DNA of 64,000 nt from a virus: IMG/VR virus record IMGVR_UViG_3300045976_000096, positions 32,001 through 96,000 of that record; one strand, written 5' to 3'. The translations under genes and the position numbers were made by a program. The notes under the pieces were generated by a model. It saw only the letters and a list, made by a program, of their open reading frames with translations, did not search any database and was not told the DNA's origin. The stretch's first letter is position 1, and each line of letters begins with the position of its first letter. Positions 3,661 through 48,521 of this stretch are shown one piece after another.

Positions 3661-4035
3661 ATGAGCGTTGAATTTACGGACATTCTGCAGTTGCCCAAGC
3701 ATAAGGGCAAGACGGTCCAGCAGGTGTACGACACTGAGCCGAGCTACCTGCTGTGGCTGCGTGATCAAAAGCTGGCCGGTGGGCGCAGCGACTATTTCGA
3801 CGGCGAAGTCCTGCGTGCGCTGAACAAGGCGATCGACAAGGACAAACGCCTGCTCAAGAAATTCGACAAGTGGACCGAATTGTCCGACGGGCGCTTCTCG
3901 CCGATGAAGCCGAAAGCCGACGGCACCACGCCGGCGGAAAAGAAGGACGACGAAGACGTCAAGCCGACGATGCAGGAAATCGACGACGCCCAGGCGAAAG
4001 CGCGGGCTTATTCAGGATTGTGGGGGAGCTTCTAA
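3661..4035 (+). CDS. hypothetical protein with C-terminal WGSF
   Basis: N-terminal KHKGKTVQQV...PSYLLWL (exonuclease X C-terminal-like); coupled ORF. Confidence 0.6.
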   Translation: MSVEFTDILQLPKHKGKTVQQVYDTEPSYLLWLRDQKLAGGRSDYFDGEVLRALNKAIDKDKRLLKKFDKWTELSDGRFSPMKPKADGTTPAEKKDDEDVKPTMQEIDDAQAKARAYSGLWGSF

Positions 4036-4268
4036 TGGCAAGTGTAACGCTGATGGCGCAGTACAACGTCACGCTGACCGGCCCGGAAATGCGACTGGTC
4101 TGCCTCGCGCTCGATGGGCGCATCAAGTTCGACGGCAATGGCGCCGACGCGGTCGCCGCGCGCGAGCTTGGCAACATGCTGTTCAAGGCGCGCCACACAC
4201 TGCTGGCGAACGCCGCTGCGGCGCATCAAGGTAAGCAGGAGAGCGATGAGCAAGCGCGAACAGCATAA
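4035..4268 (+). CDS. hypothetical protein
   Basis: TAATG overlap with the previous gene. Confidence 0.5.
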   Translation: MASVTLMAQYNVTLTGPEMRLVCLALDGRIKFDGNGADAVAARELGNMLFKARHTLLANAAAAHQGKQESDEQARTA

Positions 4269-4611
4269 GGTTGCGGGCAAATTCTTCGGCGTGTGGTACG
4301 AGACGGCCGGCGGCAGGAAGCTGTATCTTGGCCACCGGAAGCGCGATCAAATCTATCGCGAGAAAAACGCCTGGTGCATCGACATCTACACGCTGGAACG
4401 CTGCCGCGAAATGGGCGTCACCATGATCGGCATCCTGATCAAGGACGGCGGCACCCGGATGGTGTGGATGACCCTGGTGTCGGATTTCTTCGGGCCGCAC
4501 AGCTTCGCGCACTTCACGCGCACCCGCCAAAGGGGTCTCCCCTTGCCGTATTTCAGGATCGACCCGATGAAGTCGGAGAAATTCATCGCCAAGTCGCTCA
4601 GGATCAAATAA
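4246..4611 (+). CDS. hypothetical protein
   Basis: AGGAG RBS, phage-like codon usage. Confidence 0.6.
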   Translation: MSKREQHKVAGKFFGVWYETAGGRKLYLGHRKRDQIYREKNAWCIDIYTLERCREMGVTMIGILIKDGGTRMVWMTLVSDFFGPHSFAHFTRTRQRGLPLPYFRIDPMKSEKFIAKSLRIK

Positions 4612-4680
4612 GCAATCCTGACACATTCCTGACAAATGTTGGTATCATGTTGCTAATGATCAACGAATGAAGGGATTAAT

Positions 4681-5049
4681 ATGATGACATCAGCACTACT
4701 CTGCCTGGCCGCCGCCATCTACCACGAGGCCCGCGGCGAGCCAGAACAGGGCCAGCAGGCGGTTGCGCTGGTCACGATGAACCGGGCCGAGTGGGAGAAC
4801 AAGCGCGTGTGCCGCGAAGTCCATAAGCCGGGCCAGTATTCCTGGGTCGGCACGGGCGCGAAGCACAGCGACAAGGACGCCTGGCAGCGGGCGCGGAAGG
4901 TGGCCGCAGACGTGCTCGACGGGCGCGTCGACGATTTTACGGATGGTGCGACCTACTTCCACGCCCGCAAGGCCCGACCCAGCTGGCGGCGCAGGCTACA
5001 TTACGTGATGACCGTCGGCGGTCATCGTTTTTACAAACCTTTTGAATAA
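4681..5049 (+). CDS. SleB/Hydrolase_2-family cell wall hydrolase
   Basis: CLAAAIYHEARGEP..GQ.AVA.V..NR, QYSW, GATYFH, GGHRFY. Confidence 0.9.
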   Translation: MMTSALLCLAAAIYHEARGEPEQGQQAVALVTMNRAEWENKRVCREVHKPGQYSWVGTGAKHSDKDAWQRARKVAADVLDGRVDDFTDGATYFHARKARPSWRRRLHYVMTVGGHRFYKPFE

Positions 5050-5056
5050 GTCACAA

Positions 5057-7171: not shown

Positions 7172-9117
7172 TGGACATCAAGAACCTTTCGATTACAAAT
7201 TTTCTCACCATCGGCCAGGCGGAACTGCAGCTGGACGGCCGCGGACTTCTTCTTATACAAGGCGAGAACGGCGACGACACGTCGGCCGCAAGTAATGGCG
7301 CCGGCAAGAGTTCCATCGTCGACGCCCTGTGCTGGTGCCTGTACGGCACCACCGCGCGCGACGTGGAGGGCGACGCCGTCGTCAACGCCACCGCCAAGAA
7401 GGACTGCAAGGTCGAAGTCCTGCTCGACGACGATGGCGCCGAGTACCGCATCACGCGCTACCGCAAGGACAAGGTCCACAAGAACCAGTTGTACGTCCAC
7501 AAGCAGAACGCCACCGGCGGCTGGGACGACCTGTCCAAGGGCACCGACAAGGAAACGCAGGAAGTGGTGCGCAAGGTCATGGGCTGTTCGCTGGACGTGT
7601 TCAAGGGCGCGATCTACGCGGGCCAGGAAGCGATGCCGGACCTGCCGGGCATGACCGACAAGCACCTGAAGCTGCTGATCGAAGAGGCGGCCGGGGTCGA
7701 GGAGCTGTCCGAAGCATTCACGGAAGCCTCTAAACGGGCGCTGGCGGCGAAAAAGGACTTCGATGCTGCCGGCATGCATGTCAAGTCGCTGGAACAGCGC
7801 CTGGAGGCTCTGAACGAGTCCGTGACCAACGCCGAAGCACAGCACAAGCTGTTCGAGGACGGCCGGCGCGACCGGGCGAAAGCCGAACTGGTCAAGGTTA
7901 AGCCGATCAGCGACGGGATTGCTGAAGCCAATGGCAAGCTGGCCGCTTACGATGTTCCCAAGCTGGTGGATCGGCGCCGCGACCTGAATGCGCAGCTGGC
8001 CGGTCGCAAGGCGGAAGAAAAACGTCTCGACGAACTGCAGGCGGCGCTAACTGCCACCACCCGCGCCGCCGCCGGCGCACGCGCCGCCGCCGAGCACCAG
8101 CAAGCAACCGTCAAGCGCCAGGAGCAGGAATTGGCCGACGTCGAGAGCCTGGTCGGCAAACCTTGCGGCGAGTGTGGCAAAACCTATTGCGAGCACGACC
8201 TGGACGAGGCGCGCGAAGCCAGAAAACGCACGATCGCCGCCAGCAAGGAAGAACTGCTGCTACTGCTAAAGACACTCAAGACGGTCAATGGCGAGCGCGA
8301 CAAAGCCAGTGCGGCGGTCGATACCTTCCGCGCCGGCATGACCGACGTCTCGGCCGCCGCGGCCGAACTGACGAAAATCAACGACGACCTGGCGCAAGCC
8401 CAGCGCTACACCAACGCCATCGCCACGCTGGAACGCGACATGAAGCAGGTCAACGTGGATGCGCGCGCCAAGCTGACCGAGCCGAACCCATGGGACAAGG
8501 TGGTGGCCGGCAAGCGCGAAGACCGCCAGCAGTGCGAGAACGACCTCGGCGCCGCGCAAGACCACGCGAAGAAGCTGGAAGCGGTCGCTGACCTGTTCGC
8601 TGACGCAGCGAAGGTGTTCGGCCCCGCGGGCGTCCGCGCCCACATTCTCGACACGGTGACGCCATTCTTGAACGCGCAGACCACCGAGTATCTGGGCGCG
8701 CTGGCGGACGGGAACATTCACGCGACGTGGTCCACGCTGGCGAAGACCGCGAAGGGCGACCTGAAGGAGAAGTTCAACATCGAGGTGGAGAACGACAAGG
8801 GTGGCAAGACCTTCAAGGCGCTGTCCGGTGGCGAGAAGCGCAAGGTGCGCCTGGCCGCCGCGATGGCGCTGCAGGACATGGTCGCCTCGCGCGCCGAGAA
8901 GCCGATCAACCTGTGGATTGGCGACGAAATCGACCACGCGCTCGACGAGCCGGGCCAGGAGCGTCTGATCGGCGTCCTCGAGAAGAAGGCGAAGGAGCGC
9001 GGCACCGTGTTGGTGATCAGCCACAATGCACTCACGGACTGGATCGACGATGTCATCACCGTCAAGAAAGCCGGCGGTGTGTCGATTGTTTCTGGCAGTA
9101 CCCATCGTGGCTTCTGA
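7171..9117 (+). CDS. Rad50/SbcC-like ATPase
   Basis: NGAGKSS Walker A, coiled coils with CGEC zinc hook, LSGGE signature, IGDE Walker B, ISH. Confidence 0.93.
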   Translation: MDIKNLSITNFLTIGQAELQLDGRGLLLIQGENGDDTSAASNGAGKSSIVDALCWCLYGTTARDVEGDAVVNATAKKDCKVEVLLDDDGAEYRITRYRKDKVHKNQLYVHKQNATGGWDDLSKGTDKETQEVVRKVMGCSLDVFKGAIYAGQEAMPDLPGMTDKHLKLLIEEAAGVEELSEAFTEASKRALAAKKDFDAAGMHVKSLEQRLEALNESVTNAEAQHKLFEDGRRDRAKAELVKVKPISDGIAEANGKLAAYDVPKLVDRRRDLNAQLAGRKAEEKRLDELQAALTATTRAAAGARAAAEHQQATVKRQEQELADVESLVGKPCGECGKTYCEHDLDEAREARKRTIAASKEELLLLLKTLKTVNGERDKASAAVDTFRAGMTDVSAAAAELTKINDDLAQAQRYTNAIATLERDMKQVNVDARAKLTEPNPWDKVVAGKREDRQQCENDLGAAQDHAKKLEAVADLFADAAKVFGPAGVRAHILDTVTPFLNAQTTEYLGALADGNIHATWSTLAKTAKGDLKEKFNIEVENDKGGKTFKALSGGEKRKVRLAAAMALQDMVASRAEKPINLWIGDEIDHALDEPGQERLIGVLEKKAKERGTVLVISHNALTDWIDDVITVKKAGGVSIVSGSTHRGF

Positions 9118-9766
9118 CCGGCGCGATAAAATAGATGAACGCGACTTCGTGATCATGACGGGCCGGCGTGCCGGCAAGTCAATGCTCGCGAAGATGCTCA
9201 AGCCTCGACCCGAGATTCGCGGGACCGAGGCTTCGTTCGTCATCATGGACGAATGTACCGACAGCCTTGCGTTCACCAACGAGGATTTCCGCAAACTTTA
9301 CCTGACCGATCCAATGAGCAAAGACGACACCCTGACCGAAGTCCAGCAGGAGCTGGACAAGCTGTGCGAGCGCATGACCGCCTATTTCGCCGCCGCGCCC
9401 GACATCGACATCACGACGACCCTGTCCGGCCCCGGCAACCTGACCGTGAGCGTGCCCGGCAAGGGCTACCGCAAGCGCAACCACGTCGGCGGCGAGGAAT
9501 TCGTCGCCAAGAGCGCGCGCCGCGGCGCCTCCGACAAGATCATCTTCGTGTTCAAGCCCGCCTCGGCCAGCGAATACACGGAGATGGAGATGACCGAGGT
9601 TGACGCAGCCGCCCAGCTCAATGGCGGGCGCGCGCTGCTGAACGCGGCTGCCGGCGGCGACTTCTTTGCCGAACTGCGCAATATCCGCGCCATCGGGCAA
9701 AAGCAGAAGCAGGCGCTCGAAGTGGTGGCCAAGCAGGCGACCTACCCGGACTTCGGATCGTGGTAG
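9107..9766 (+). CDS. hypothetical protein with C-terminal FGSW (start uncertain)
   Basis: Long ORF with phage codon bias; alternative ATG at 9314. Confidence 0.55.
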   Translation: MASDRRDKIDERDFVIMTGRRAGKSMLAKMLKPRPEIRGTEASFVIMDECTDSLAFTNEDFRKLYLTDPMSKDDTLTEVQQELDKLCERMTAYFAAAPDIDITTTLSGPGNLTVSVPGKGYRKRNHVGGEEFVAKSARRGASDKIIFVFKPASASEYTEMEMTEVDAAAQLNGGRALLNAAAGGDFFAELRNIRAIGQKQKQALEVVAKQATYPDFGSW

Positions 9767-10059
9767 CGCCCCTGAACTTCCCGCCGTACATCCACGAACC
9801 GTGGGGTGCGGCCGAGCCGATCAAGACCGCCATCAACAACGTCTCGTCCAATGTCGCCGGCACCCTGTCGACGCTGCACGCGGCGGTCGCCAATCTGGAG
9901 ACGCACACCGGCGTCTCTACCAGCACCGTCAGCGGCGGCCCGACGCCGGAGCAGCGCATCGCCGTCCTGGAGGCGCAGGTGCAGACCCTTTCCAAACAGG
10001 TCGAGGCGCTGACCAAGCGCCTGGCCGACATTCCTCAATCCCCGACCGGGGCCTGGTAA
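9760..10059 (+). CDS. small coiled-coil protein with C-terminal DIPQSPTGAW
   Basis: Overlaps the previous stop; heptad pattern. Confidence 0.55.
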   Translation: MVAPLNFPPYIHEPWGAAEPIKTAINNVSSNVAGTLSTLHAAVANLETHTGVSTSTVSGGPTPEQRIAVLEAQVQTLSKQVEALTKRLADIPQSPTGAW

Positions 10060-10744: not shown

Positions 10745-11329
10745 GTGGCAATCAGTAAATTCGGAGACCTGTTCTCCTCGGTGTGGTCGACCAGCAAGCC
10801 TGGTGACATGAAGAATGGCGCTGGCGCACCCCACATCAACGACGCGCTGGGCGGCGCCAGCGGCAAGCCCGCCGCCCCGGCGCCGAGAATCACCAGCAGC
10901 CTCGACGACCCGCTGTATGACCCGTATGGCAACATCATCGGTGGCCACCGCCGCCATGCCGCGCGCGAGGAATTGAAGCGCTCCCTGACCGCCGGCGGTG
11001 GCGAAGGCGTCACCGTTAGCGAATCTAGCGTGCGTTTCAAGGGCGGCGAAATCACCGCGGCAGGCAACATGCGCATCGGCCCATCCGAGGAAGAACTCAA
11101 CAAGCGCTTCGCGGAATTCGTTGAAAAGTACAAGAAGGACAGCGAAGCGGCCAGGGCCGCCAGGGAGGAAATCGCAGCCGACATGGACAAGCTGCCGCCC
11201 GCCCGGTCTTCCCTGAACCTGGACGCGCTGCGCGCCAGCCTGGCTGCCAAAGAACACGACCTCAAGAAAAAGGCCGAGGAGTCCAAGGTCAACCGCGACC
11301 GCCCGCAGAACGTGGACGATTCCTGGTAA
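10745..11329 (+). CDS. hypothetical protein with C-terminal DRPQNVDDSW
   Basis: GGAG RBS and GTG start after the promoter. Confidence 0.6.
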   Translation: MAISKFGDLFSSVWSTSKPGDMKNGAGAPHINDALGGASGKPAAPAPRITSSLDDPLYDPYGNIIGGHRRHAAREELKRSLTAGGGEGVTVSESSVRFKGGEITAAGNMRIGPSEEELNKRFAEFVEKYKKDSEAARAAREEIAADMDKLPPARSSLNLDALRASLAAKEHDLKKKAEESKVNRDRPQNVDDSW

Positions 11330-19449: not shown

Positions 19450-19872
19450 ATGAGCGCCGTACCCGATCTTCGCGAGGAACTCGACCGTAAGTCGATGGAG
19501 ACCATCGAATTCCTGTACACCGGACTGGACAATGGCAAGCTGACGCTGCCCCAGTTCTCGACCGGCCTGGACACCCTGTTCATGGCGGTTGCCGGTCTTG
19601 TCGACAAGGAAATTGTCGACTTCGTCAGCAACGGCAGCCTGATCGTTGCCAACGCCCCGGACCAGTTCTGCGCCAAGCGCGCGTTCCTGAACCCGGTCCA
19701 GACCGTCGCGCTGTGCCGCAAGCTGGGCGGCGACACCTTTACCGTGGACGTCTATCAGGGCGGCCACCTCGTCAAGCAGGAGCGCAAGGAATACCTGCTG
19801 GCCAAGCAGGCGACTGACGCCATGAACACCCTTGCCGGCCGATTGCTGGCGGCGGGCTATATCGAAATTTAA
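19450..19872 (+). CDS. hypothetical protein
   Basis: ORF downstream of an operator/promoter. Confidence 0.6.
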   Translation: MSAVPDLREELDRKSMETIEFLYTGLDNGKLTLPQFSTGLDTLFMAVAGLVDKEIVDFVSNGSLIVANAPDQFCAKRAFLNPVQTVALCRKLGGDTFTVDVYQGGHLVKQERKEYLLAKQATDAMNTLAGRLLAAGYIEI

Positions 19873-20974: not shown

Positions 20975-21586
20975 ATGCCGACCGGATACACGCACGCGCT
21001 GACCGAGCGCGACCTGAGCTTCCAGGAATACGCACTGACCTGCGCGCGCGCCTTTGGCGCCTTCGTTCATATGCGCGACGAGCCGCTCGGCGCGCCGCTG
21101 CGCCCAGACACCGTCACGTCATACTACGACGACAAGCTGACCGAAGCCAAAGCCGACCTGGACAAGTTCCAGCACATGTCGCTGGAAGATGCGCGCGTCC
21201 TGTACAACGCCGAACGTGCCGAACGGCGCACGCGTGCCGAGCAGCGCATCGAGGAAATGAAGGTGATCGAGGCGCGCTATCGCGCGCTCAAGGAAAAGAT
21301 CGACGCCTGGGCGCCGCCGACACCGGAACACCAGAGCCTCAAGCGCTTCATGCTGGAGCAGTTGATGGTATCGGCCAGCGATTACGACTCGTCCTATTAC
21401 GCGGAAGACGCCGCCCTGGCGCCGACCGTGACCGACGCCGAAGCGAGCGAATGGGTGCAGGAAAAGATCCGGGCCGCCATCAAGCAGATTGGCTACTGCA
21501 GCGACCAGCGTCGCAAGGAGCAGGAGCGCGTCGACCAGCGCAACGAATGGGCGCGCCAACTGCAGGAGTCGTTGAAAGATGGATAA
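20975..21586 (+). CDS. hypothetical phage protein (MPTGYT...CARAFGA)
   Basis: GGAGG RBS; coiled coil. Confidence 0.65.
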   Translation: MPTGYTHALTERDLSFQEYALTCARAFGAFVHMRDEPLGAPLRPDTVTSYYDDKLTEAKADLDKFQHMSLEDARVLYNAERAERRTRAEQRIEEMKVIEARYRALKEKIDAWAPPTPEHQSLKRFMLEQLMVSASDYDSSYYAEDAALAPTVTDAEASEWVQEKIRAAIKQIGYCSDQRRKEQERVDQRNEWARQLQESLKDG

Positions 21587-22130
21587 AAAGGTTGAGCTGA
21601 AGGATTTCGTCGGCAAGGAGTTCGACCTGACGGCGGTCTCCACCGCCGAGGTCGTCGCCAACGATAAATATGGCGACTTCGCAAACGCCAGCACCATCAC
21701 CTTCACGCTCGATGGCGTGACGTATCAGGCGGTGGAAGACCCGAGCGACGGCTACCGGTCCTCGCTTCGGGAAATCTTCATCTGCGACACGGAACCGGCA
21801 AACCGGTTTCCAGCCCAGCGCGTGAAGGCGACGTGGAAGGAGCCGGGTTCTTACGACAACGACACGGTCGAATTCCGTTCGGTCGCCTCGGACCTGATCG
21901 TGATGGAAGTCGGCACCGACCATGTGAATGACTATTATCCATGCTTCGTCAGCAATTTCGAGCCGAAGAACATGGACATCAACCGCACGGACGACATCCG
22001 GCAGAAGATCGCGATGGAGGAAGCCAAGCGACTCGAGGACGAACGGCATGCCCAAGATGTGCGGGACAAGCTGAACGCCAAAGCAAAGCTGGACGCGCAG
22101 CGCGACGACGCAGGCTGGGGCACCTTTTGA
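21579..22130 (+). CDS. hypothetical protein with C-terminal WGTF
   Basis: EDPSDGYRS and VGTD..DYYP motifs. Confidence 0.65.
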   Translation: MDKKVELKDFVGKEFDLTAVSTAEVVANDKYGDFANASTITFTLDGVTYQAVEDPSDGYRSSLREIFICDTEPANRFPAQRVKATWKEPGSYDNDTVEFRSVASDLIVMEVGTDHVNDYYPCFVSNFEPKNMDINRTDDIRQKIAMEEAKRLEDERHAQDVRDKLNAKAKLDAQRDDAGWGTF

Positions 22131-22210: not shown

Positions 22211-22744
22211 ATGACGCGAACCATCCCGCAACTCGGCCATATCGTGCGCGACGCCACGACCGGCTTTACCGGCACTGCCACCCAGTACATCGAAATGCTG
22301 TCCGGCACCGTGCAGCTGGCGGTGCAGCCGATGCTGCCCGAAGGCTCCACCCACACCGGCGACGCGCTGGCGATTCCGACCGCGCTCTCCATCGACCTGC
22401 CGCAGCTGGACTACGTCAGCGCCGGCATCGCCAGCCGCGTGATCGCGCCGGCGCCGCAGACCATCAGGCTGGGCGAGGAAGTCGAGGACATCGTGACGGG
22501 CCTGCGCGGCATCACCGTGCAGCGCTCGACCTTCATCAACGGCTGCGTCTACTACAACGTGCAGCCGAAGCAGACCGCCAAGCAGAAGGAAGAAGGCACG
22601 TTCAGCGATACCGGCTTCGTCGCGGCGCAGCGCCTGGAAGTCGTCGGCGACGGCGTGGCGGCCAAGATGGCGCCGGCAACCGCGGCCCCGGCCGCCAAGC
22701 GCCCCGGCGGCCCGACCACCCGCGCACAGCGTCCGGGCTGCTGA
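22211..22744 (+). CDS. hypothetical protein with a duplicated SH3-like repeat
   Basis: Two LG..V.D..TG..G repeats. Confidence 0.65.
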   Translation: MTRTIPQLGHIVRDATTGFTGTATQYIEMLSGTVQLAVQPMLPEGSTHTGDALAIPTALSIDLPQLDYVSAGIASRVIAPAPQTIRLGEEVEDIVTGLRGITVQRSTFINGCVYYNVQPKQTAKQKEEGTFSDTGFVAAQRLEVVGDGVAAKMAPATAAPAAKRPGGPTTRAQRPGC

Positions 22745-23094
22745 TGAAGACCCTGCACATTCCGCCGCTCGGCACCGAACTGACCCTGGCGGCCGACTGG
22801 ACCTTCACCCTGTACGACGAGCACCGCAACAGCGCCTTGTTCGCCGGCTTGAAGCTCAAGTTTCCGGTCGACGCCAGGGGTCATCGCCAGTGCTGGGGCG
22901 CCAACATGCTCAGCGTGCCGGCGACGCTCCCGGCCGGCACCGTGCTGACCGTGCGCCGCTACTACATCCGGCTGGGCCAGGGCGCGTTCGACAGCGTCAC
23001 CTTCTCGGCCCGGATCGGCAAGAAGTCGCACCGCTTCTGGGTCAAGCTGGCGGACGCGAACCGCATCCAGCTGGCCGACGAGGAGGCGGCATGA
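22744..23094 (+). CDS. hypothetical protein
   Basis: TGATG overlap. Confidence 0.6.
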   Translation: MKTLHIPPLGTELTLAADWTFTLYDEHRNSALFAGLKLKFPVDARGHRQCWGANMLSVPATLPAGTVLTVRRYYIRLGQGAFDSVTFSARIGKKSHRFWVKLADANRIQLADEEAA

Positions 23095-23345
23095 TCCGCG
23101 GTGCCTGGGAAGGCTTCAAGGCCGGTGTGCGCTGGTGCGTCACCACCTGGCCGTTCGGCTACCTGTGCGACTTCGAGTGGGGCCATCAGGGCCGCATCCG
23201 GGTCACGAAGGACTTGTGGGTGATCGTCGGCGACAAGGGCGGCGGCACCGACGCGCTGCCGATCACCTTCTGCTCGCCGCAGCTGATCGCCCGCGTCGAG
23301 GAAGAACTGACGGGCCGCTGGTACGCGCCAACGACCAAGAACTGA
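23091..23345 (+). CDS. hypothetical protein
   Basis: ATGA overlap, GGAGG RBS. Confidence 0.5.
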   Translation: MIRGAWEGFKAGVRWCVTTWPFGYLCDFEWGHQGRIRVTKDLWVIVGDKGGGTDALPITFCSPQLIARVEEELTGRWYAPTTKN

Positions 23346-23431
23346 ATCCGCGCACGCTCCAGATATGGGCGTGCATAATACCACCATGACAACAACGTCA
23401 TGACTGACTTACTTAACCACATGGAGAAAAT

Positions 23432-24580
23432 ATGTCCGAAACCATTCTGCAATCGAAGGCGGTGTTCTTCCGCGACGGCAACGACTTCACGATCGGCGAC
23501 CGCGAGAACCTGCAAATGTCCGACACGCTGCCGGTCGGCACCTACCGCCTGGATGCGGACATGCAGCGCGGCCTGTTCCTGACCAAGATCGAGAACATGA
23601 CGACGCCGGCCAAGCTGTACGGTCACACCCGCGAGCAGGCCGAGCGCATCCTGGCCACGTTCAAGGATCGCCCGTACACCACCGGCGCCCTGCTGTCGGG
23701 CACCGCCGGCTCGGGCAAGACCATGCTGTCCATGCTGATTTCGCAGATGGGCCTGCAGCAGGACTACATCACCATCGTGGTCAACCAGCGCCTGGTCGGC
23801 GAACAAGTGAATGCCTTCCTGACCCAGATCAAGCAGCCGGCGATCATCCTGTTCGACGAGTTCGAGAAGATTTTCGACGCCGAAAGCCAGAACAAACTGC
23901 TGACGCTGCTGGACGGCTCGTTCAAGTCCAAGAAGCTGTACATCCTGACCGTGAACGACACGACCAAGGTCAACCGCTACATGACCAACCGGCCCGGTCG
24001 CCTGTTCTACGCGCTGGAATTCCGCGGTCTGGACAAGGACTTCATCAAGGAGTACTGCGACGACAAGCTGATCAACAAGGCCAACACGCTCGGCGTGATC
24101 ATGGCGTCGCAATTCTTCTGGGAATTCTCCTTCGACATGCTGCAGGCGCTCGTCGAGGAAATGAACCGCTACAACGAGAACGCCACCCAGGCCATGAAGA
24201 TGCTGAACATGCGCCCGCTGAACTCGTCCTCGGGCACGTACGAAGTCCACCTGTACCACAATGGCAAGGAACTGAATGTGCGCAAGGGCCACGACACGAC
24301 CATTGACGGCACGCCGATGGCCAAAGCGGAGCAGGAATACCAGCTGGACCTGTACCCGCCTGTCTACCGCGACAAGGACGGCAGCGCCGACTACTCCGGC
24401 AAGCAGGTCAAGGAAAACGACCTCAAGGAGCACATGTCCATCGTGATCGACAACGACAAGATGATCAAATACGACATGGACAAGGACGTGTTCATCTACA
24501 ACACCGAGCACGACGGCTATCAGGTCCACTTCAAGCGCGTGAAGGCCCGCTCCACCTACTACAACTACGACGCCCTCTAA
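23432..24580 (+). CDS. AAA+ ATPase
   Basis: GTAGSGKT, ILFDEFEK, LLDG, NRPGR arginine finger. Confidence 0.9.
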   Translation: MSETILQSKAVFFRDGNDFTIGDRENLQMSDTLPVGTYRLDADMQRGLFLTKIENMTTPAKLYGHTREQAERILATFKDRPYTTGALLSGTAGSGKTMLSMLISQMGLQQDYITIVVNQRLVGEQVNAFLTQIKQPAIILFDEFEKIFDAESQNKLLTLLDGSFKSKKLYILTVNDTTKVNRYMTNRPGRLFYALEFRGLDKDFIKEYCDDKLINKANTLGVIMASQFFWEFSFDMLQALVEEMNRYNENATQAMKMLNMRPLNSSSGTYEVHLYHNGKELNVRKGHDTTIDGTPMAKAEQEYQLDLYPPVYRDKDGSADYSGKQVKENDLKEHMSIVIDNDKMIKYDMDKDVFIYNTEHDGYQVHFKRVKARSTYYNYDAL

Positions 24581-24636
24581 CAACCCGCAAGGGCCGGCCC
24601 ACGCCGGCCCACCCTCAACCTCAACTAGGAACCACG

Positions 24637-24951
24637 ATGTCCGACAATACCGTCACCGAAAAAGCCGAGACCTACAACCCGAATCACCTGCTGGACGTCC
24701 TGCTGGCCAAGATGCAGCTGAAAAACGACGCCGCGCTGTCGCGCATGCTGGAAGTGGCGCCGCCGGTGATCAGCAAGATTCGCCACAACAAGCTGCCAGT
24801 CGGCGCCAGCCTGCTGCTGCGCATGCACGAAGTCACCGGCATTTCCGTGCGCGACCTGCGCGACCTGATGGGCGACCGCCGCCAGAAGTACCGCCTGTCC
24901 GACGCGCAGGGCAAGCCGAAGACCACCGAATCCACCACCAACCAGGAGTAA
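24637..24951 (+). CDS. XRE-like HTH DNA-binding protein of a host-like family
   Basis: LKNDAALSRMLEVAPPVISKIRH helix-turn-helix. Confidence 0.75.
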   Translation: MSDNTVTEKAETYNPNHLLDVLLAKMQLKNDAALSRMLEVAPPVISKIRHNKLPVGASLLLRMHEVTGISVRDLRDLMGDRRQKYRLSDAQGKPKTTESTTNQE

Positions 24952-24954
24952 TCC

Positions 24955-25362
24955 ATGAGCAAAGTCATCATGTACAAGGCGAACGACGGTTCGCTGCACG
25001 AAACCCAGAAGGCGTGCGACGCCAAGAACATCGAACTGCGCACCGCGCCGCTGGTCGAGGAATTCGTCAACAGCCTGACCGCCGGCTCTGTCGGCGTAAC
25101 CGCCGACAGCGGTCATGTCTACATCGACCTTGCCAACCTGCCGGACTTCCTGGTCGCGCATGCCGATGTTCTGCGCGCGCTGCTGAACCGCGCCGTGCAG
25201 CCGGCGGGTCGCCCGCGCAAGCCGCGTGATCCGAACACGCCGAAGGCGCAGCGCAAACCGCGCGCCAAGAAGACCGATGCGCCGCCGGCCCCGGTCGATA
25301 CGCCCGCACCCGCCGGCGGCATCGACGACGTCCTCAAGGATCTGGGCGGCGATGCGGCCTAG
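24955..25362 (+). CDS. hypothetical protein with a basic Pro-rich tail
   Basis: AGGAG RBS. Confidence 0.6.
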   Translation: MSKVIMYKANDGSLHETQKACDAKNIELRTAPLVEEFVNSLTAGSVGVTADSGHVYIDLANLPDFLVAHADVLRALLNRAVQPAGRPRKPRDPNTPKAQRKPRAKKTDAPPAPVDTPAPAGGIDDVLKDLGGDAA

Positions 25363-25598
25363 TGACGGCGGCAAGGGCGACGACCGTCGTCCCGAGGACA
25401 ATGAGCGCTATCGGCAGAACCACGACCGGGTCGACTGGTCGAAGAAGGTGCCGCCAGCGCCACCCAAGCCCCAGGCGTGCTCCCGCTGGCCATTCGATGT
25501 CCGCAGGATCGACGAATAGCCGGTCCCGCATCCTGACATAGCTTGGTATCATGTGCGTCAGTCAGCAATGACCGACGCACTTTTCATTTGAGGACAAC

Positions 25599-30020: not shown

Positions 30021-30467
30021 ATGGCAACAGTCTTATACCTGGACCACGACGGCAACCGGATCAGCCTTGAGCAGTACAAGGCGCATCAGGCCGACCCGAC
30101 CTACACGCAGGTACACGCCTACGACAACGGTCGTGTGCGCGCCGTCGTGACCTGGATCGGCCGCATCGTCGACCCCGGCTCGACCTTCCCGGACTACTAC
30201 AAGCTGTTCAAGGTGGAAGTCTGGAACTACACCGAGGGCGGCGAGCTGGCGAAAGATCCTGGCTATCCGAAATTCTTCCCGACCAGGGACAAGGCGGTCG
30301 AGGAATACAACTTCTTCGTCGCGCGCTGGAGCGAATCCGAGCTGGATGACGAGGGGCAGCTGATCGAGGCGGGCAACACCCTGACACCTCCGCCACCACC
30401 CAACCCGGACGCGCCAAGCTCGGCGCCGCCGGCCGACGACGACATTGCAGGAGTAGGAGCATGGTAA
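30021..30467 (+). CDS. hypothetical protein with C-terminal GVGAW
   Basis: Follows an operator site; Pro/acidic linker before the tail. Confidence 0.6.
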   Translation: MATVLYLDHDGNRISLEQYKAHQADPTYTQVHAYDNGRVRAVVTWIGRIVDPGSTFPDYYKLFKVEVWNYTEGGELAKDPGYPKFFPTRDKAVEEYNFFVARWSESELDDEGQLIEAGNTLTPPPPPNPDAPSSAPPADDDIAGVGAW

Positions 30468-32952: not shown

Positions 32953-33831
32953 ATGACAAGTGGCGTCTACTCCATCACCAACACCGTCAGCGGCAAACGG
33001 TACATTGGTAGCTCGCAGAAGATCGCGACACGCTGGCGCATCCACCGTAACGATCTGCGAAACGGCAAGCACCACAGCCGGCATCTGCAGCACGCCTGGA
33101 ACCTGGATGGCGAGGATGCCTTCGTATTTGAAATCCTGCTCGAGTGTGGCGTCGACGATCTGTTACGTGAGGAGCAGCGACTGATGGATGAAAGGCGCGC
33201 AAGGGAAGGCAACCACGGCTACAACACGGCACCCGTTGCTGGCTCCCGTCGTGGTGTTCCGCATTCGCCCGAGGTGCGCGCCAGGATGAGTGAGAAGGCA
33301 CGCGCTCGCCCGCCAATGAAGGATGAACATCGCAAGGCGCTATCTGCCGCACTGCGTAAGGCACGATCGGAGGGTCGTCTGTTCACCGACGAGCATCGAC
33401 GCAAGATTTCGGAGTCACTCACCGGAAGGCAGTATTCGGATGAAACCCGCGCGAAGATCGGCGCCGCCGGCCGCGGTCGTCCGGTATCGGACGAAACGAA
33501 GGAGAAGCTGCGTGCCGCCTTGAAGGGCAAGCCGCTCTCCGACGAGAACTACCAGCGGCTCTTGGAGCGCAGCCGCACGACCAATGTGATCACGCCTGAA
33601 ATTCGAGCCAAGATGGTCGAATCGCGCAAGGCAACACTGGCCGCCAGGCGCAAGGAGGTCGCCGCACAAATCATCGCGCTCAAGGAGGAAGGGCTGTCGT
33701 TCTCCAAGATCGCGAAGCGTCTCACCGAGGATAAGGTGCCGACGCTGAATAGCAGGAAAGAAGGCGCGGAGCCAAGCTATAACTGGTTTCCCGCCATTGT
33801 TATCAAAATCTATAACGAGGCAACACCATGA
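32953..33831 (+). mobile_element. free-standing GIY-YIG homing endonuclease with NUMOD3 repeats
   Basis: GVYSI...YIGSS, REEQ, GYN, SDETRAKI/SDETKEKL repeats. Confidence 0.9.
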
Positions 33832-34169
33832 ACGACAAACTGAAGGCATTACCGGACGACGCGCTGGTTCGCCTCAAGGAGCAGGTGGACGAGGAATTCA
33901 AGCGCCGGCGCAACCACCTGTTCGCCATCGGCAAGCACGCCACCTTCTTCTCGGAGCGGTATGGGCGCGAAGTGCGCATCCTGATCACCGGGCGCGGCCC
34001 GAAGAACCTCGTCGGCTTCGAGTGCGACGAGTACGGCAACAAGGTCGGCCCGCAATGGCGCTGCCACCCCAGCGCGCTGACGCCGGTGCTGCCGAAACCG
34101 AAGCCCGTCGCGCCGACGGTGGGCGTGGGCCGCGACGCGCCCGCGTCGGCAATGGCGGGATCGTTTTAA
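33828..34169 (+). CDS. hypothetical protein with C-terminal DAP...GSF
   Basis: ATGA overlap; followed by a terminator. Confidence 0.6.
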   Translation: MNDKLKALPDDALVRLKEQVDEEFKRRRNHLFAIGKHATFFSERYGREVRILITGRGPKNLVGFECDEYGNKVGPQWRCHPSALTPVLPKPKPVAPTVGVGRDAPASAMAGSF

Positions 34170-37116: not shown

Positions 37117-37497
37117 ATGCCCATCGAGGCGATCGAGGTCGGCGAGGACATCGTCGGCTGCGGTTACTGCGGCGGGCAGCTGCTGCTGATCGAAATGATG
37201 CCGGACGGCCACCACGAAATCTGCAACGACTGCGGACAGCACTACCATGTGACGGACGAAGGCGAGAGTGCCGAGGACATCACAGCGGCGTTGGCCGCCG
37301 ACATCGAAATCGTGGACGACGCCACCGGCGAGGTGGTCGGCACCACCGCGCCCGGCATGACCCACCCGTCCGAGCTGGACCGCCTGCTGCAGGAGCTGGG
37401 CGGCGAGGTGCCGATGGCCAGCGCCGCGGACCTGAACCACCTGTTCGGCATCAAGGACAAGCCCTGCCCGTATGGCGACGAGTTTGGCTCATTCTGA
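37117..37497 (+). CDS. zinc-ribbon protein with C-terminal FGSF
   Basis: CGYC...CNDC; acidic. Confidence 0.6.
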   Translation: MPIEAIEVGEDIVGCGYCGGQLLLIEMMPDGHHEICNDCGQHYHVTDEGESAEDITAALAADIEIVDDATGEVVGTTAPGMTHPSELDRLLQELGGEVPMASAADLNHLFGIKDKPCPYGDEFGSF

Positions 37498-40697: not shown

Positions 40698-41003
40698 GTG
40701 AACGCACCGGCCCCAAGTCCACGCCCGCCGCTACATTTCATCGTGTGGCGCGTGACCTACAGCAGCGGCAGGACCACCGTCTCGGCGATCGACAAGAACC
40801 AGTTCGAGGCGCACATGGAGGAAAGCCCCGACTACCTCGACGGCTCGGCCTGTGTGAAAGCAATCAGCATCGCCGAGGCGGAAGACCTCGCGCGTGATCC
40901 GAACCTGTGGGAACCGATCCCGGCCCACGTAATCGAACAGGCACAAGAGCAACACCGGCAAGCAAAACTCGCGGCCAAGGCCCATTACCCGGCCGCATGG
41001 TAA
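40698..41003 (+). CDS. hypothetical protein with C-terminal YPAAW
   Basis: AGGAG RBS, GTG start. Confidence 0.5.
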   Translation: MNAPAPSPRPPLHFIVWRVTYSSGRTTVSAIDKNQFEAHMEESPDYLDGSACVKAISIAEAEDLARDPNLWEPIPAHVIEQAQEQHRQAKLAAKAHYPAAW

Positions 41004-44653: not shown

Positions 44654-44682
44654 TTGACCTGGCAATTTTCGATCTGTATAGT
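44654..44682 (+). promoter_or_regulatory. sigma70-type promoter
   Basis: TTGACC-17bp-TATAGT with upstream A tracts. Confidence 0.75.
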
Positions 44683-45519: not shown

Positions 45520-45547
45520 ATCACAAGGGCGCACTACGGTGCGCCCT

Positions 45548-45563
45548 TGTTTCACGTGAAACA
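45548..45563. promoter_or_regulatory. parS: parS palindrome (chromosomal consensus)
   Basis: Perfect TGTTTCACGTGAAACA. Confidence 0.85.
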
Positions 45564-45578
45564 CACAAGGGAAACATC

Positions 45579-46253
45579 ATGCACAAGATCGAAGAATACG
45601 ACGAGCAAAGCGACGAATTCACGGTGCGCGCACCTGACGGGACGCGTTATTTCGCTAACGCAGAAACACTCGCGCATATGCTGAATCATTACGACGAACC
45701 GAGCGCGTTTCTTGGTATGCAGTTCACTACAACCATTAAGGTGCAAGCATGAAAAGCGAATATCTGAAACAGCAGCGCGCGACGCGCAACGACGAGATCA
45801 CGCTGTGCGTCGTCGCGCTGCTGTGTGTCGTGCTGTGCATGGGCGTGCTGATTAACGCAGCAATTGAGAGTGAACAGCGCGCAGCGCAGCGCGCGAGCGA
45901 CGCACGGTTAGCGCGTACGGGTTCGCGCTTATGCTTGCAAGACGGTCGCACGATTGACCAAATGCGGTTTGACGAACCCGTACGCGCGATGTCTGCGCGT
46001 TGGTGCAAACGTTAAGGGGAAAGACATGACTGACTTAGAAAAAGCAATGCAAGAGTTCGCAGCGCGTAACGGTGTGACGCAATGCGCACCCGTCACGAGC
46101 GCGAAGCAAGCAAACGAGCTTGCGAAAGCGCGACGCGTCGAACAGCGCGAACGCGAACGTGCAGAACGCGCTGCGCGCTGCGCAGAACAGAACGCAGAGA
46201 ACGCGCGCTATGATCGCGAAGGTGTGTGGTACGTGGGCGGGTTCGCATCGTAG
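45579..46253 (+). CDS. three small ORFs (45579-45752; 45749-46015 with a TM helix; 46026-46253)
   Basis: AAGGGA/AAGGTG/AAGGGGA RBSs, ATGA overlap. Confidence 0.55.
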
Positions 46254-46473
46254 CACATACGCAACAGTAGCACGCACCGCTTGACACGGTGCGTGCGATA
46301 TGCGATGTCTTAGAAAAATTTTCAACCCGAGGAGGCCCTGCCTTCCTCGACTTCCGGTCTCCGAACACCCTTCCTTACAGAATCCTGGGCGGCCGCAAAA
46401 GCCAATCCTTATACATCCAAGATCCAAACATCCACGATCCAGGATTCCACATTTCCCCACTTATCCCCGCAAT

Positions 46474-48521
46474 TCACCAGTTATCCACAATCCCCTTGGG
46501 CCGATCCTTCGACGCCAGGCGCGAGCCATCGAAACGCCCGGCCGGCGCTGCCGCGCCTCGCCGGGGTACGTCCTGCGCGCGTGGAATGATTGCCGCCTGA
46601 ATGAACAGAGGCTGGACCTCCCATTCTGCTTTCGACTCGAATGACCGGTTGCCGCTTGGGACCAGCGCCAGGTAATTTTCCCACGACAGGTCGCGATCCT
46701 TCTGCAGGGCCAGGCACTTGCCGACCAGCTCCTTGATGATGCGCTTTTGCTCTAACGGCCAGACGCCATCCCACCTATGGGCAGGCATGTCGCCGTTCTC
46801 CTGCTCGCCCAGCTGACGCCGAAGGTACAGGTAGTCCTCGTAGTTCGGGAAGGACAGGATTTTCGCCAGGTCTCTCACCAGATCACCTCCACGACGGTTT
46901 GCGGCCTGTCCGAGCCGGCGGCGCCTTGCGTTCTCGGGGTGCGCCGCACTTCCTCGCGCAGCTCCTCCATCATGTCCATCCGTGCTTTCAGGGGCATGGC
47001 GCGCCAGACGGCCTCTGAAATCGGCTCGTACTTGAGCGCCAGCGACAGCTCCACGTAGCGCTGGTAGGTGTTCACCATACGACGTCCACCGGGGTTTGCG
47101 GTTGATCGCCCTTCGGTTGGGCGGTGGCGCGCGCACGGTCGCGCATGACGCGCTGCTGGTGCTGTAGAACGTTGATCGTGATCTTGCGCATGATGGGCTT
47201 CATGTCGGTCCAGGCGTTGGCATCGATGCAGACTTCGTTGTCGAAGTGCCCGGCCAGCCAGGTGCGCATGTAGTCGTCGTAGGAGATGTTCACCAGTGGT
47301 CTCCGCCAAAACGTTCCAGTTCCTTGTTGCGTCGGTCGACGGCAGCCTGCATCTGGGCCACCATGCTCTCCTGCGCCTTCTGATCACAGCCATTCCAGAC
47401 GTGCTCTGCAATAAGGCCGAAATCGTCGTCGAACCCGGCTTCCACGCGCAGTCGGCGGTAGCGCTGGTACAGGCTCATGCGTCACCCCGCTGCCAGGCGA
47501 TGAAGTCCTCGGTGCCGTCGGCAAAGCCGCGCTCCCAGGCCTCGACCAGCACGGGTGTAGTGTACGGACAGGCCGGCACTTCCGTGACCAGTTCGTAGCG
47601 CCCGGTGCGCCAGCCGGCATCGAGACCGTCGGCATAAGCGTCGGCGTCAGCGGTCCACTTCACCATACCACCTCCACCGTGGTCTTCGGCGTGTCGCCCT
47701 TGCCGGTAAGCCGGTCAATCTCGTCCTGCGACGCCTCGCGCCACTCGCCGGCGCGCACGCTGGTGTCGATCGTCACGGTGGTATAGGTGATGTGCGGCAC
47801 GGCACGCCCATCCCGGAACATCAGTCGCCCGGTATGGGTATCGTGACCCGGCTCGAAGTCGATGCAGATGGCGCGCAAGGTGTCGCGCCAGGTGCCGTGC
47901 GGACCCTGCACGAAGTAGCGTTTCATCACGTTCTTGCGCTGGCCACTGTCGTCGGCAGGCCTGCCGGCGCCGGCCACGCCGAGCCAGTCGATATTCGTCA
48001 CCATGCGTCCACCCCGTCGGTCTTGGGTTTGTCGCCTCTTGGTGTGCCGGGGTCGACCTGGGCCTGCTTGGCCAGCGCCACGATGACGTTGCGGCGTTCC
48101 TCCTCGGGAACCAGATCGTTCCAGATCTCGTACGTGGCGGGCCTGTCCGCGCGCTTGGCCAGCCGGCACAGGCGCAGGTAGTTGTCGTAGCTGGTGTCTA
48201 CCATGCTCCGCCCTCCACTTCGGTTTGCGGCACGTCGGGCAGACGCACGCGCGCGCCGGCCGCCATCTTCAGCTGGTACTCGCTCGGCTCGAAGTAGGCG
48301 TTTTCGTTGTTAGGCTCCTGCAGCACCTCGATCATGGTGCCGGATTCGACGTGGCTCATCACGTCCTTGAAGCTCCACGGGCAGTGTACGGCGACGCTGC
48401 CATCGTGCTTGATGCCGCGCCGCGTCGTGATCGCGCCTTCTCCTTCGCCGAAGTCGAACTCGATGTGGTGAATGCGGTCGTTGATCGGCTTGGCGCCTGG
48501 CAGCATGAACACGCGCTTCAT
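46474..48521 (-). CDS. array of eight coupled small ORFs (48198-48521, 47998-48204, 47660-48004, 47475-47666, 47290-47478, 47072-47293, 46875-47078, 46474-46878); seven end in Trp
   Basis: Stop/start overlaps throughout; shared YxxY...W domain in five and shared C-terminal tail. Confidence 0.7.

Follow-up and report, generated by a model that had tools for sequence, protein, structure and literature searches.

To determine why about one in ten proteins of a phage, otherwise unrelated to each other, end in a common short tryptophan or phenylalanine peptide, and what might read such a peptide, we analyzed a 64,000-nucleotide stretch of viral DNA (the window) together with the genome from which it derives. 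The window corresponds to bases 32001-96000 of a 112,422-bp SSU5/nickie/RHEph10-like siphophage genome. We find that the shared ending is strongly enriched and is kept by related phages, each with its own variant, and is thus most likely an address label read by one partner, possibly the "cobalt chelatase-like" CobS/CobT motor of the phage.

Distribution and sequence of the C-terminal tag

The initial annotation listed 16 open reading frames with a C-terminal aromatic tag, and this observation is confirmed and is stronger than first described: all 16 C-termini are present, 12 ending in Trp and four in Phe. A codon-usage gene call of the whole genome gives 161 genes, 14 of which end in Trp; since Trp accounts for 1.3% of residues, 2.0 are expected (binomial p = 2.3e-8). 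In total, 18 proteins carry the tag, 16 of them in the window and two just outside it, directly after the primase gene (Table 1). The tag takes two forms, [FWY]-G/A-[STA]-[WF]-COOH and D-x-P-[QK]-[TS]-x(2-6)-W-COOH, and the core [FWY][GAS]x[WF] sits at the extreme C-terminus of six proteins, against 0.17 expected at any one fixed position. With the last 12 residues removed, no pair of the 18 tagged proteins matches by BLASTP at E<0.01, although the small helical proteins of the minus-strand operon are distant paralogs by alignment.

Table 1. Tagged proteins and other features discussed in the text. Coordinates are those of the window unless marked L001 or genome; G001 and the other G numbers denote related genomes, and L044 is a further source of a positional counterpart.
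Coordinates	Strand	Feature	C-terminus	Observations
L001:17335-17781		Tagged, after the primase gene	RWGSW	Outside the window
L001:17781-17993		Tagged, after the primase gene	HWATW	Outside the window
genome 22471-25779		CobS/CobT-like pair		Outside the window
3661..4035	+	Protein A, 124 aa, encoded after RecA	LWGSF	N-terminal ExoX_C/DUF3820-like motif (PF20600, E 2.6e-5), acidic linker, tag; orthologs end QWGAF, SWGSF, AWGSW, VWGSW
9107..9766	+	Protein B, 219 aa, or 173 aa if it starts at 9245; always directly after SbcC	YPDFGSW	Small beta-barrel plus a long helix plus the tag; AF2 model pLDDT 78.7, no clear PDB fold match
9760..10059	+	Protein C, 99 aa, coiled-coil-like	DIPQSPTGAW	TGG TAA, then a 13-nt gap, no overlap; positional counterparts in G001 and L044 end DIPTSTPTW and DRPQTTPTW
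10745..11329	+	Protein D, 194 aa, between RuvC and NrdA	DRPQNVDDSW	79-nt gap downstream; relatives at the same position end DRPQTAMDAW, DRPQTAADAW, DRPQTEVDAW, with synonymous codon changes
21579..22130	+	Protein E, 183 aa (phrog_27926)	DDAGWGTF	80-nt gap downstream; no homolog in the 8 whole relatives compared
23432-24580		AAA+ gene		Generic-looking AAA ATPase
30021..30467	+	Protein F, 148 aa, Pro/Ala-rich linker	DIAGVGAW	7-nt start-codon overlap; orthologs end GDAAW (G001), VAGVGAW (G002), PDFGAAW (G003), GGVGAW (G004), AGAYA (G012)
33828..34169	+	Protein G, 113 aa, Pro-rich linker	DAPASAMAGSF	291-nt gap downstream; orthologs end AAGSW (G002) and AGGSW (G004), so terminal F and W interchange
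37117..37497	+	Protein H, 126 aa, zinc-ribbon-like N-terminus	DKPCPYGDEFGSF	81-nt gap downstream; the G004 relative ends PDFGSF
40698..41003	+	Protein I, 101 aa, or 86 aa from 40743; a weaker member	HYPAAW	No overlap; the G002 ortholog (47% identity) ends HYPEVW
46474..48521	-	Operon of eight small genes downstream of the UvsW-like helicase		Seven genes end in W
46474-46878	-	Operon gene	DRPKGIVDNW
46875-47078	-	Operon gene	DRPQTVVEVIW
47072-47293	-	Operon gene	DQPQTPVDVVW
47290-47478	-	Operon gene	FGGDHW
47475-47666	-	Operon gene, untagged
47660-48004	-	Operon gene	DTPKTTVEVVW
47998-48204	-	Operon gene	DKPKTDGVDAW
48198-48521	-	Operon gene	DVPQTEVEGGAW
49179-50906	-	UvsW-like helicase

The bodies of the operon proteins fall into a helical family, in which Y5 and W25 are invariant, and others. 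The position of this operon carries D-x-P...W tags in G001 and G002 but [FWY]GTW tags in G005, so the two forms are interchangeable.

The initial annotation cautioned that overlaps of the ATGGTGA type can create Trp-stop ends, which raises the possibility that the endings have no function and are by-products of overlapping start codons, of ribosome-binding sites, or of recent paralogy. Six of the 18 genes indeed have a 7-nt overlap in which the ATG or GTG start codon of the downstream gene overlaps the final TGG codon, and in a few operon genes the last residues (V-E-V-V-W) are also coded by a GGAGG ribosome-binding site plus an ATG; the caveat holds for those genes only. The remaining 12 genes have no such overlap, and the bodies are unrelated, despite the partial paralogy of the operon genes. 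A by-product of this kind would require conservation at synonymous sites and loss of the tag wherever the overlap is absent, neither of which is seen (below), and we regard this reading as extremely unlikely.

Conservation of the tag among related phages

We next asked whether the tag is conserved as a peptide or merely as DNA, since loss of the terminal W/F in orthologs, or conservation at the DNA level only, had been named beforehand as grounds for rejection; neither is found. Orthologs at 25-45% identity keep the tag while using synonymous codons. In 23 + 16 nonredundant tags from 37 SbcC-anchored loci, F is coded by TTT/TTC, G by all four codons, and S by both TCN and AGY, the stop is TAA, TAG, or TGA, and the downstream sequence is unrelated. 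In an alignment of 18 protein B orthologs at 17-50% identity, the terminal Trp is the only invariant residue; the tag is the most conserved element of its carriers.

All 14 related genomes examined carry the tag, each with its own variant: FGxW[AS] in phage nickie, NPxFGRF in RHEph10, WATW in SSU5, and WGxYA in an uncultured relative. Other W-ending lineages give 14, 10, 7, 8, and 8 proteins ending in Trp. The motif is found at the C-terminus or one residue before it in 6-10 proteins per genome in ten of the eleven genomes first tallied, against about 0.15 expected at one position (Poisson p from 1e-3 to 1e-11). These variants change together on unrelated proteins of one genome, which implies one co-evolving reader. 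The two positional orthologs encoded after DnaG and after SbcC end RWGSW/DFGSW here, GWGAFG/DFGGWA in nickie, RFGMF/NFGRF in RHEph10, and GWATW/TWATW in SSU5, and in G012 the proteins after SbcC end WG.YA.

Candidate readers of the tag

The initial annotation read the tag as a modular docking or sorting signal for one hub, proposing an AAA+ unfoldase (the gene at 23432), a capsid-loading route, or a host complex; this interpretation is partly supported, in that docking to a single hub is well supported, while the hub that was named is not. The AAA+ gene occurs in only 2 of 9 whole relatives compared; tblastn finds it only in G001 among 8 whole relatives that carry the tag, and a search of G002-G011 found it in none. 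A capsid-loading or virion-incorporation signal for proteins injected with the DNA has a precedent in the T4 capsid-targeting sequence, and some carriers, such as the Gam-like protein in nickie, could be useful on entry. However, all tagged genes lie in the early/replication half and none in the structural module, there is no link to the prohead protease or scaffold, and plasmid modules with analogous tails (below) have no capsid, making this reading very unlikely.

In our best explanation, held with about even confidence, the shared ending is a portable short docking peptide with a core of a hydrophobic/aromatic residue, two small residues, and then Trp or Phe, at or one residue before the free carboxyl end, often following [RK]-P or D-x-P and a flexible linker. 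The peptide would tether a changing set of accessory proteins to one common reader. The carriers are mostly DNA-end, recombination, and early proteins: a WGR-domain protein after the primase gene, a DUF3820-like protein after RecA, the protein after SbcCD, proteins around RuvC, and the small proteins after the UvsW-like helicase. Our analysis establishes that the tag exists, is strongly enriched, is under peptide-level selection, sits on unrelated proteins, and changes together within each genome; that one co-evolving reader binds it is inferred, although we consider it very likely, and that this reader is the CobS/CobT-like machine is a weaker, tentative inference, somewhat less likely than not, made from sequence and genomic correlation alone.

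CobS and CobT, encoded about 16 kb upstream of the window and not considered in the initial annotation, are the best candidate for the hub; they are core genes in all 14 genomes, and their presence thus cannot discriminate within the group. CobS is a MoxR-type AAA+ ring (AAA_5+CbbQ_C by Pfam), while CobT (CobT+CobT_C/VWA) has an N-terminal M48-like zincin domain, with HExxH...E invariant in most lineages, an acidic linker, and a vWA domain with an intact metal-binding (MIDAS) site. The vWA part matches Brucella CobT at E 4e-48, and the MIDAS residues D-x-S-x-S...T...D are invariant, including in the nickie clade. Structural support for the zincin fold is weak, with a best VIA Z of 5.0 to ZMPSTE24 and 4.4 to Ste24p and to ArdC, and Foldseek found nothing. 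In this model, the carboxylate and aromatic side chain of the tail would dock on CobT, either at the vWA MIDAS site or in the zincin groove, and CobS would then use ATP to remodel, release, or hand over the client. This follows what is proposed for MoxR-vWA pairs in general, where a substrate peptide is captured at the MIDAS site (PMC7159879), and what the CobSTN structures show for the client CobN, where the M48-like domain of CobT_N contacts CobN and the finger of CobT enters the CobS pore (10.64898/2026.07.21.739949).

Two correlations link this pair to the tag. First, the only proteins shared (phmmer E<0.01) between these phages and the IncC plasmid hde region are the CobS-like AAA and the CobT-like zincin-vWA, and in that region Vcrx090, Bet, Exo, DUF3150, and an upstream ORF also end in aromatic residues (DHFF, GSYY, TFYW, DYFF, and ELVW), although these tails differ in sequence from the phage tags. 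Two other plasmid CobS-like/DUF3150 modules, one with an annotated vWA gene and the other with a 684-aa protein with an HExxH motif, show their own shared tails, [SA]LFL and [LI]M/LxF. Second, tag position tracks the zincin motif: in four genomes with a degenerate motif (SEISK, GEIAK, REVAK), 0 of 37 tags end at the aromatic residue and all carry one more small residue, whereas in 10 genomes with HExxH, 40 of 50 end exactly at it. This covariation may rest on only one or two evolutionary events and has a clear exception in G013, which has an intact HEVGH but tags WGAWS/WGSWS, while G002 and G014 are mixed. Furthermore, the tagged genes are spread over about 63 kb and are not clustered round CobST.

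The zincin motif also bears on whether the tag is a degradation signal, marking early and accessory proteins for timed turnover by a host protease (Lon, ClpXP/ClpAP, HslUV, or FtsH) or by the CobT zincin domain fed by CobS as a two-part ATP-dependent protease. The tag is exposed, hydrophobic/aromatic, and C-terminal, and lies after flexible linkers, most carriers are small early-region proteins, and HExxH...E is invariant in the CobT N-domain of 22 diverse relatives. However, lineages with a dead zincin motif (nickie, G006, G007, and G012) keep a full set of tags, the tags do not resemble known ClpX or ssrA-type ends, the most conserved carriers are stable-looking DNA-repair accessory proteins kept across the whole group, and host proteases are conserved whereas the variants differ between lineages. 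We therefore consider this reading unlikely.

Other core proteins, including the gp32-like SSB (PF08804), the RecA/UvsX-like recombinase, the UvsW-like helicase, DnaB, and ligase, or a host protein, could equally be the reader, and a sliding clamp or a host replisome protein may also be envisioned. Tagged genes sit beside the primase, RecA, SbcCD, RuvC, and UvsW-like helicase genes, many tags follow acidic residues, and several D-x-P tags read Q-x-x-hydrophobic-x-x-W, a PIP-like spacing. On the other hand, the tags do not fit the bacterial clamp consensus QL[SD]LF, the phage DnaE ends in its own different motif (QVA[DE]IF-like in nickie, G006, and G007), and no phage clamp was found. The bacterial clamp pocket is very conserved, which fits poorly with lineage-specific variants, and none of these candidate hubs is shared with the plasmid modules that show the same kind of tails. 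A replication or recombination hub is thus possible but appears unlikely.

Comparison with known C-terminal peptide systems

By analogy, a replisome hub would resemble the C-terminal docking tips of replisome proteins, including the bacterial SSB tip (DDDIPF), the acidic Phe-ended tails of T7 gp2.5 and gp4, the clamp-binding tails of T4 gp43, gp33, and gp55, and PIP boxes. In each, a short terminal peptide ending in an aromatic residue is tethered by a flexible segment, sits on DNA-metabolism proteins, and serves as a plug for a pocket on a partner. In SSB and gp2.5, one hub protein carries the tail and many partners read it, whereas here 10-18 unrelated proteins carry it and one reader is implied, which is more like PIP or clamp motifs. 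The sequences described here ([FWY]-G-[ST]-W and D-x-P-Q-T..W) match none of those consensus motifs, are found on about 10% of the proteome, and have lineage-specific variants.

Among MoxR AAA+/vWA pairs, the closest is CobS-CobT of aerobic cobaltochelatase (Brucella CobSTN structures, 10.64898/2026.07.21.739949; Rhodobacter CobST, 10.64898/2026.10.09.757910), considered with the general peptide-capture model (Kaur et al. 2020, PMC7159879). The phage proteins share this domain organization, and in the published model a client is held by CobT and worked on by the CobS ring. However, no CobN-like client is evident in the phage, the phage CobT N-domain keeps a full HExxH...E zincin motif, and the proposed clients, whose docking on CobT is inferred only, are many tail-tagged proteins and not one chelatase subunit. 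The hde (host defence evasion) operon of IncC plasmids, vcrx089-vcrx093 (Roy et al. 2020, PMC7498323), contains a CobS-like AAA_5/CbbQ_C ATPase and, nearby, a CobT-like HExxH + vWA protein, and also deals with DNA ends and restriction. It is found on a plasmid and not a phage, only about five proteins are tagged, and the tails, which the paper does not mention, are acidic plus two aromatic residues and not [FWY]-G-x-W.

The FxSxx-COOH peptides of actinobacteria, coupled to vWA-MoxR ternary systems and a zincin peptidase (Haft and Basu 2011, as cited in PMC7159879), likewise place a conserved C-terminal peptide on otherwise variable small proteins, and the nickie variant F-G-S-W-A literally fits F-x-S-x-x-COOH. 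Those are small precursor peptides thought to be cleaved and modified by a radical-SAM/SPASM enzyme, whereas here the carriers are folded proteins of many kinds, no such enzyme was seen, and most lineages end at the aromatic residue. Finally, the invariant C-terminal tryptophan of McdB (PMC11321042) lies on a disordered tail and mediates docking of an adaptor onto a large assembly, but belongs to one protein family with a different partner, the carboxysome shell, and is not a tag shared by unrelated proteins.

Genomic context and extent of the C-terminal tag

The window covers bases 32001-96000 of a single 112,422-bp virus record. To place the tagged proteins in their genomic context, we compared this virus genome with published phages and found that the portal, terminase and capsid proteins are 53 to 61% identical to those of Salmonella phage SSU5, Rhizobium phages such as RHEph10, and Pseudomonas phage nickie. 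Mapping of the genes onto the nickie annotation and Pfam gives a T4-like recombination and replication set arranged around a DnaE polymerase, which includes PhoH, DnaB, DnaG, ligase, CobT, CobS and DnaE; a gp32-like SSB, a FEN/RNase H-like exonuclease and RecA; SbcD, SbcC, RuvC, NrdA/B, thymidylate kinase and DnaQ; and a UvsW-like helicase, ParB, a methyltransferase and two ABC ATPases. The helicase assignment rests on a weak UvsW_N hit together with ResIII and Helicase_C, and the phage thus combines T4-type recombination proteins with a bacterial-type DnaE/DnaQ polymerase. In G004, one of the whole relatives described below, DnaE is called as two ORFs (784 aa and 419 aa) separated by about 730 bases that include a 164-aa ORF, and may be a split or an invaded polymerase gene. 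A 251-aa protein encoded between CobS and DnaE reads like a divergent sigma factor, with region-2-like and region-4-like segments, although Pfam finds nothing in it. Coordinates of the features discussed here are collected in the accompanying table.

Coordinates of features discussed in the text (L numbers denote individual loci; G000 is the genome under study)
Sequence	Coordinates	Strand	Feature
Window	428-1270	+	gp32-like SSB
Window	4246-4611		Small protein, ORF 4246
Window	19450-19872		Small protein, ORF 19450
Window	23432-24580		AAA ATPase, 382 aa (phrog_2376)
Window	49179-50906	-	UvsW-like helicase
Window	53375-54031 and 54024-54581 (paralog at 26443-27201)		ABC-type ATPase and the next protein
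G000, outside the window	22471-24450 (L002:2471-4450) and 24580-25779 (L002:4580-5779)		CobT-like protein and CobS-like ATPase
G000, outside the window	25806-26561 (L002:5806-6561)		Sigma factor-like protein, 251 aa
Phage nickie	L007:22500-23264 and L007:23846-24862		Two small proteins between NrdA and NrdB, and NrdB (also G007, L035, L045, L046)
G004 (L069-L070)	genome 96484-100825		DnaE called as two ORFs
IncC plasmid	L103:8880-9410		SSB of the hde operon

All 16 aromatic C-termini listed in the initial annotation are present, and the observation therefore holds. A codon-usage gene call of the whole genome, in which key genes were checked by hand, gives 161 genes, 14 of which end in Trp against 2.0 expected (p = 2.3e-8). 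Two further tagged genes lie just outside the window, directly after the primase gene, and end in RWGSW and HWATW; together with the Phe-ended members, this gives 18 tagged proteins. The tag takes two forms, [FWY]-G/A-[STA]-[WF]-COOH and D-x-P-[QK]-[TSGN]-x(2-6)-W-COOH, and many tails follow Pro/Ala-rich or acidic linkers. With the tail trimmed, the bodies of these proteins show no BLASTP match to each other at E<0.01. They include a WGR domain, an ExoX_C/DUF3820-like motif, a zinc-ribbon-like protein, a small beta-barrel protein and small helical proteins.

Searches for the identity of the bodies returned little. Pfam and PHROGs give almost nothing beyond WGR, ExoX_C-like, a weak zinc ribbon and families of unknown function. 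No DNA-level relatives of the tagged regions were found in GenBank phages, and tblastn of protein B, the tagged protein encoded directly after SbcC, against GenBank phages gave no match. A large protein-database search with the B family returned only 11 hits, one of them in a Massilia genome, which harbors the closest named relative of one tagged protein. The predicted fold of protein B, a small beta-barrel plus helix, has no significant PDB match, and a PDB profile search with the small helical operon family, made to examine a possible resemblance to T4 UvsW.1, found nothing. The ABC-type ATPase of the window and the next protein end in almost the same nine residues (R-A-P-E-G-M-K-N-V/A), which looks like a second, separate shared C-terminal peptide. 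In the nickie clade, two small proteins encoded between NrdA and NrdB end in L-I-P-E-W and L-D-V-K-W, and NrdB itself ends in G-L-E-W; since the NrdB tail is what binds NrdA, these may be tail mimics that compete for or regulate the reductase.

Peptide-level conservation and lineage-specific variants

We next asked whether the tag might be a by-product of gene overlap or of ribosome-binding sites. Six of the 18 genes have the 7-nt overlap that puts the start codon of the next gene across the final TGG, whereas 12 do not. We anchored 37 IMG/VR loci on SbcC and found that in the nonredundant tags from these loci every codon varies synonymously, with Phe encoded by TTT/TTC, Gly by all four codons, Ser by both TCN and AGY, Asp, Pro, Gln and Thr likewise, and all three stop codons in use, while the downstream DNA is unrelated. 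In an alignment of 18 proteins encoded directly after SbcC (17-50% identity), the terminal Trp is the only invariant residue. These data reject a DNA-level artifact, and neither of the two outcomes named beforehand as counting against the tag, loss of the terminal Trp or Phe in orthologs or conservation only at the DNA level, was observed.

In an effort to define the distribution of the tag, we assembled ten whole relatives from IMG/VR (G001-G007 and G012-G014) and three published phages. G001 to G005 contain 14, 10, 7, 8 and 8 Trp-ending proteins, respectively, against about 2 expected. Phage nickie, G006 and G007 at first appear tag-free; however, about ten proteins in each carry the same motif with one extra small residue, [RK]-P-x-x-[FY]-G-x-[WF]-[ASG]-COOH. 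Seven proteins of RHEph10 end in [NH]-P-x-[FY]-G-[RM]-F, SSU5 uses W-A-T-W, G012 uses W/A-G-x-[YF]-A, and G013 uses W-G-[AS]-W-[SA] in addition to D-x-P...W. The motif at the end, or one residue before it, is 20 to 60 times over expectation in nearly every genome. The [RK]-P of the nickie form and the D-[RK]-P of the second form in the window suggest that the two forms are variants of one ancestral peptide. In G005, the operon after the UvsW-like helicase carries [FWY]-G-T-W tags, where the window has D-x-P...W tags. Positional orthologs keep a tag everywhere, including the WGR protein after DnaG, the protein after SbcC, the protein after RecA, and those around RuvC. The variant changes together on unrelated proteins of the same genome, the simplest reading of which is one reader that coevolves with all its clients. 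This makes a fast-evolving phage-encoded reader more likely than a conserved host protein, although change in concert is only indirect evidence for a common partner.

Candidate readers of the tag

The proposal in the initial annotation that the tag is a docking or sorting signal for one hub is partly supported, in that a common reader is likely but the AAA+ gene put forward as a candidate for it is not that reader. Among the nine whole relatives compared by tblastn, this AAA ATPase has a homolog only in the closest one (G001, 62% identical), with a distant homolog (35%) on an unrelated 54.8-kb viral contig; it is an accessory gene and not part of the tag system. Two small proteins, ORF 4246 and ORF 19450, co-occur only with the lineages whose tags end exactly in Trp; they are missing from the nickie clade, which also has tags, and are therefore not the universal reader. 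Pfam and PHROGs say nothing about them.

Among the core genes, the CobS/CobT pair stands out. Pfam identifies an AAA_5 + CbbQ_C ATPase next to a CobT-type vWA protein. The pair belongs to the MoxR-AAA+/vWA class, for which capture of a substrate peptide by the vWA MIDAS site followed by ATP-driven remodeling is the accepted general model (PMC7159879). The phage CobT keeps an invariant MIDAS site, D-x-S-x-S...T...D (D463, S465, S467, T501 and D589), and is clearly homologous to Brucella CobT (E 4e-48 to 9uka). None of the genes mapped to the nickie annotation is CobN. The CobT N-domain keeps a full HExxH...E zincin motif, and H69, E70, H73, E98, D99 and E103 are invariant in 22 diverse relatives, but the motif is degenerate in the nickie clade and G012. 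The AF2 model of this domain (pLDDT 87.7) only weakly resembles M48 zincins and the ArdC anti-restriction protease domain, with VIA Z scores of 5.0 to ZMPSTE24 and 4.4 to Ste24p and ArdC, and Foldseek found nothing; the Brucella structures describe an M48-like CobT N-domain that touches the client CobN. The CobS-like ATPase has an N-terminal stretch with a weak Ros/MucR zinc-finger match, below the Pfam cut-off, that hints at DNA binding.

Further considerations come from plasmids and from tag position. The IncC plasmid hde region shares with these phages only the CobS-like and CobT-like proteins (phmmer), and four other proteins of that operon region (Vcrx090, Bet, Exo and DUF3150) and one ORF about 0.7 kb upstream end in aromatic pairs, whereas the plasmid SSB of the hde operon has its DDDIPF tip followed by nine extra residues and thus not at the terminus. 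Two further plasmid modules have their own shared tails on DUF3150 and a neighbor. The plasmid tails differ in sequence from the phage tags. In the four genomes in which the zincin motif is degenerate, none of 37 tags ends at the aromatic residue, whereas 40 of 50 do where the motif is intact. This covariation may reflect one or two events, and a strict rule that an intact zincin motif means a tag ending at the aromatic residue does not hold, with G013 as the counterexample. Finally, vWA-MoxR systems are reported to be coupled to a zincin peptidase and FxSxx-COOH peptides, a pattern that the nickie variant F-G-S-W-A fits.

The presence of the tag on proteins with unrelated bodies, its peptide-level conservation and its concerted change within genomes are thus established by these comparisons, whereas binding to any partner, the existence of a single common reader and the identity of that reader are inferred. 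We consider a docking tag with one common reader highly likely, but the assignment of that reader to CobS/CobT is tentative, since all of the evidence for it is correlative and CobS/CobT is present in every relative, such that its presence cannot discriminate within the group. The gp32-like SSB, RecA, the UvsW-like helicase, DnaB or a host protein are the main alternatives. A role as a degradation signal is possible and would be compatible with an active CobT zincin, but the lineages with a dead motif keep their tags. Capsid loading is unlikely because no tagged gene lies in the structural module and the plasmids have the same kind of tails.

A broader and more speculative possibility, which we regard as less likely than not, is that the "cobalt chelatase" CobS/CobT genes common in phages and conjugative plasmids are not vitamin B12 genes, but the motor and adaptor of a client-handling hub that recognizes a short aromatic C-terminal address. 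In this view, the tag would define the clientele of the hub, that is, DNA-end sensors, recombination accessory proteins and small early proteins, which the hub would organize or remodel on incoming or replicating DNA, for example for break repair and escape from restriction; the phage group would have expanded this from 2 to 5 clients in plasmids to 7 to 18. If a single reader exists, one short peptide gives an experimental handle on about 10% of the proteome of a widespread phage and phage-plasmid group, which includes SSU5-type plasmids of Salmonella, E. coli and Klebsiella and the culturable Pseudomonas phage nickie, and in which nearly all of the tagged proteins are "hypothetical." It would also make testable the long-standing puzzle of what the CobS/CobT-like genes of phages and plasmids do, one of which is already known to help IncC plasmids escape restriction (PMC7498323). 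Furthermore, the lineage-specific variants offer natural orthogonal tag-reader pairs.

Comparison with known terminal peptides

Literature searches for the tag in SSU5, nickie or RHEph10 papers found nothing, and we found no paper that describes this tag, its expansion to about 10% of a phage proteome, its lineage-specific variants or its link to CobS/CobT. Terminal docking peptides as such are known and include the SSB tip, the T7 tails, clamp and PIP motifs, and the terminal Trp of McdB. None of the 18 tags fits the bacterial beta-clamp-binding consensus Q-L-[SD]-L-F or Q-x-x-L-x-F, and some D-x-P tags have the Q-x-x-V/M-x-x-W spacing only. The SSB-type acidic tip is a D-D-D-I-P-F-like end on an OB-fold SSB; the carriers here are not SSBs, and the phage SSB is gp32-like and ends in LLGELPE. 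The T4-type capsid-targeting sequence is an N-terminal peptide removed by the prohead protease, whereas the tag described here is C-terminal and its carriers are encoded outside the structural module. The FxSxx-COOH systems place F-x-S-x-x at the carboxyl end of small precursor proteins with a radical-SAM/SPASM partner; only the nickie-clade variant fits F-x-S-x-x, while the tags of the window end at the aromatic residue and are carried by folded proteins.
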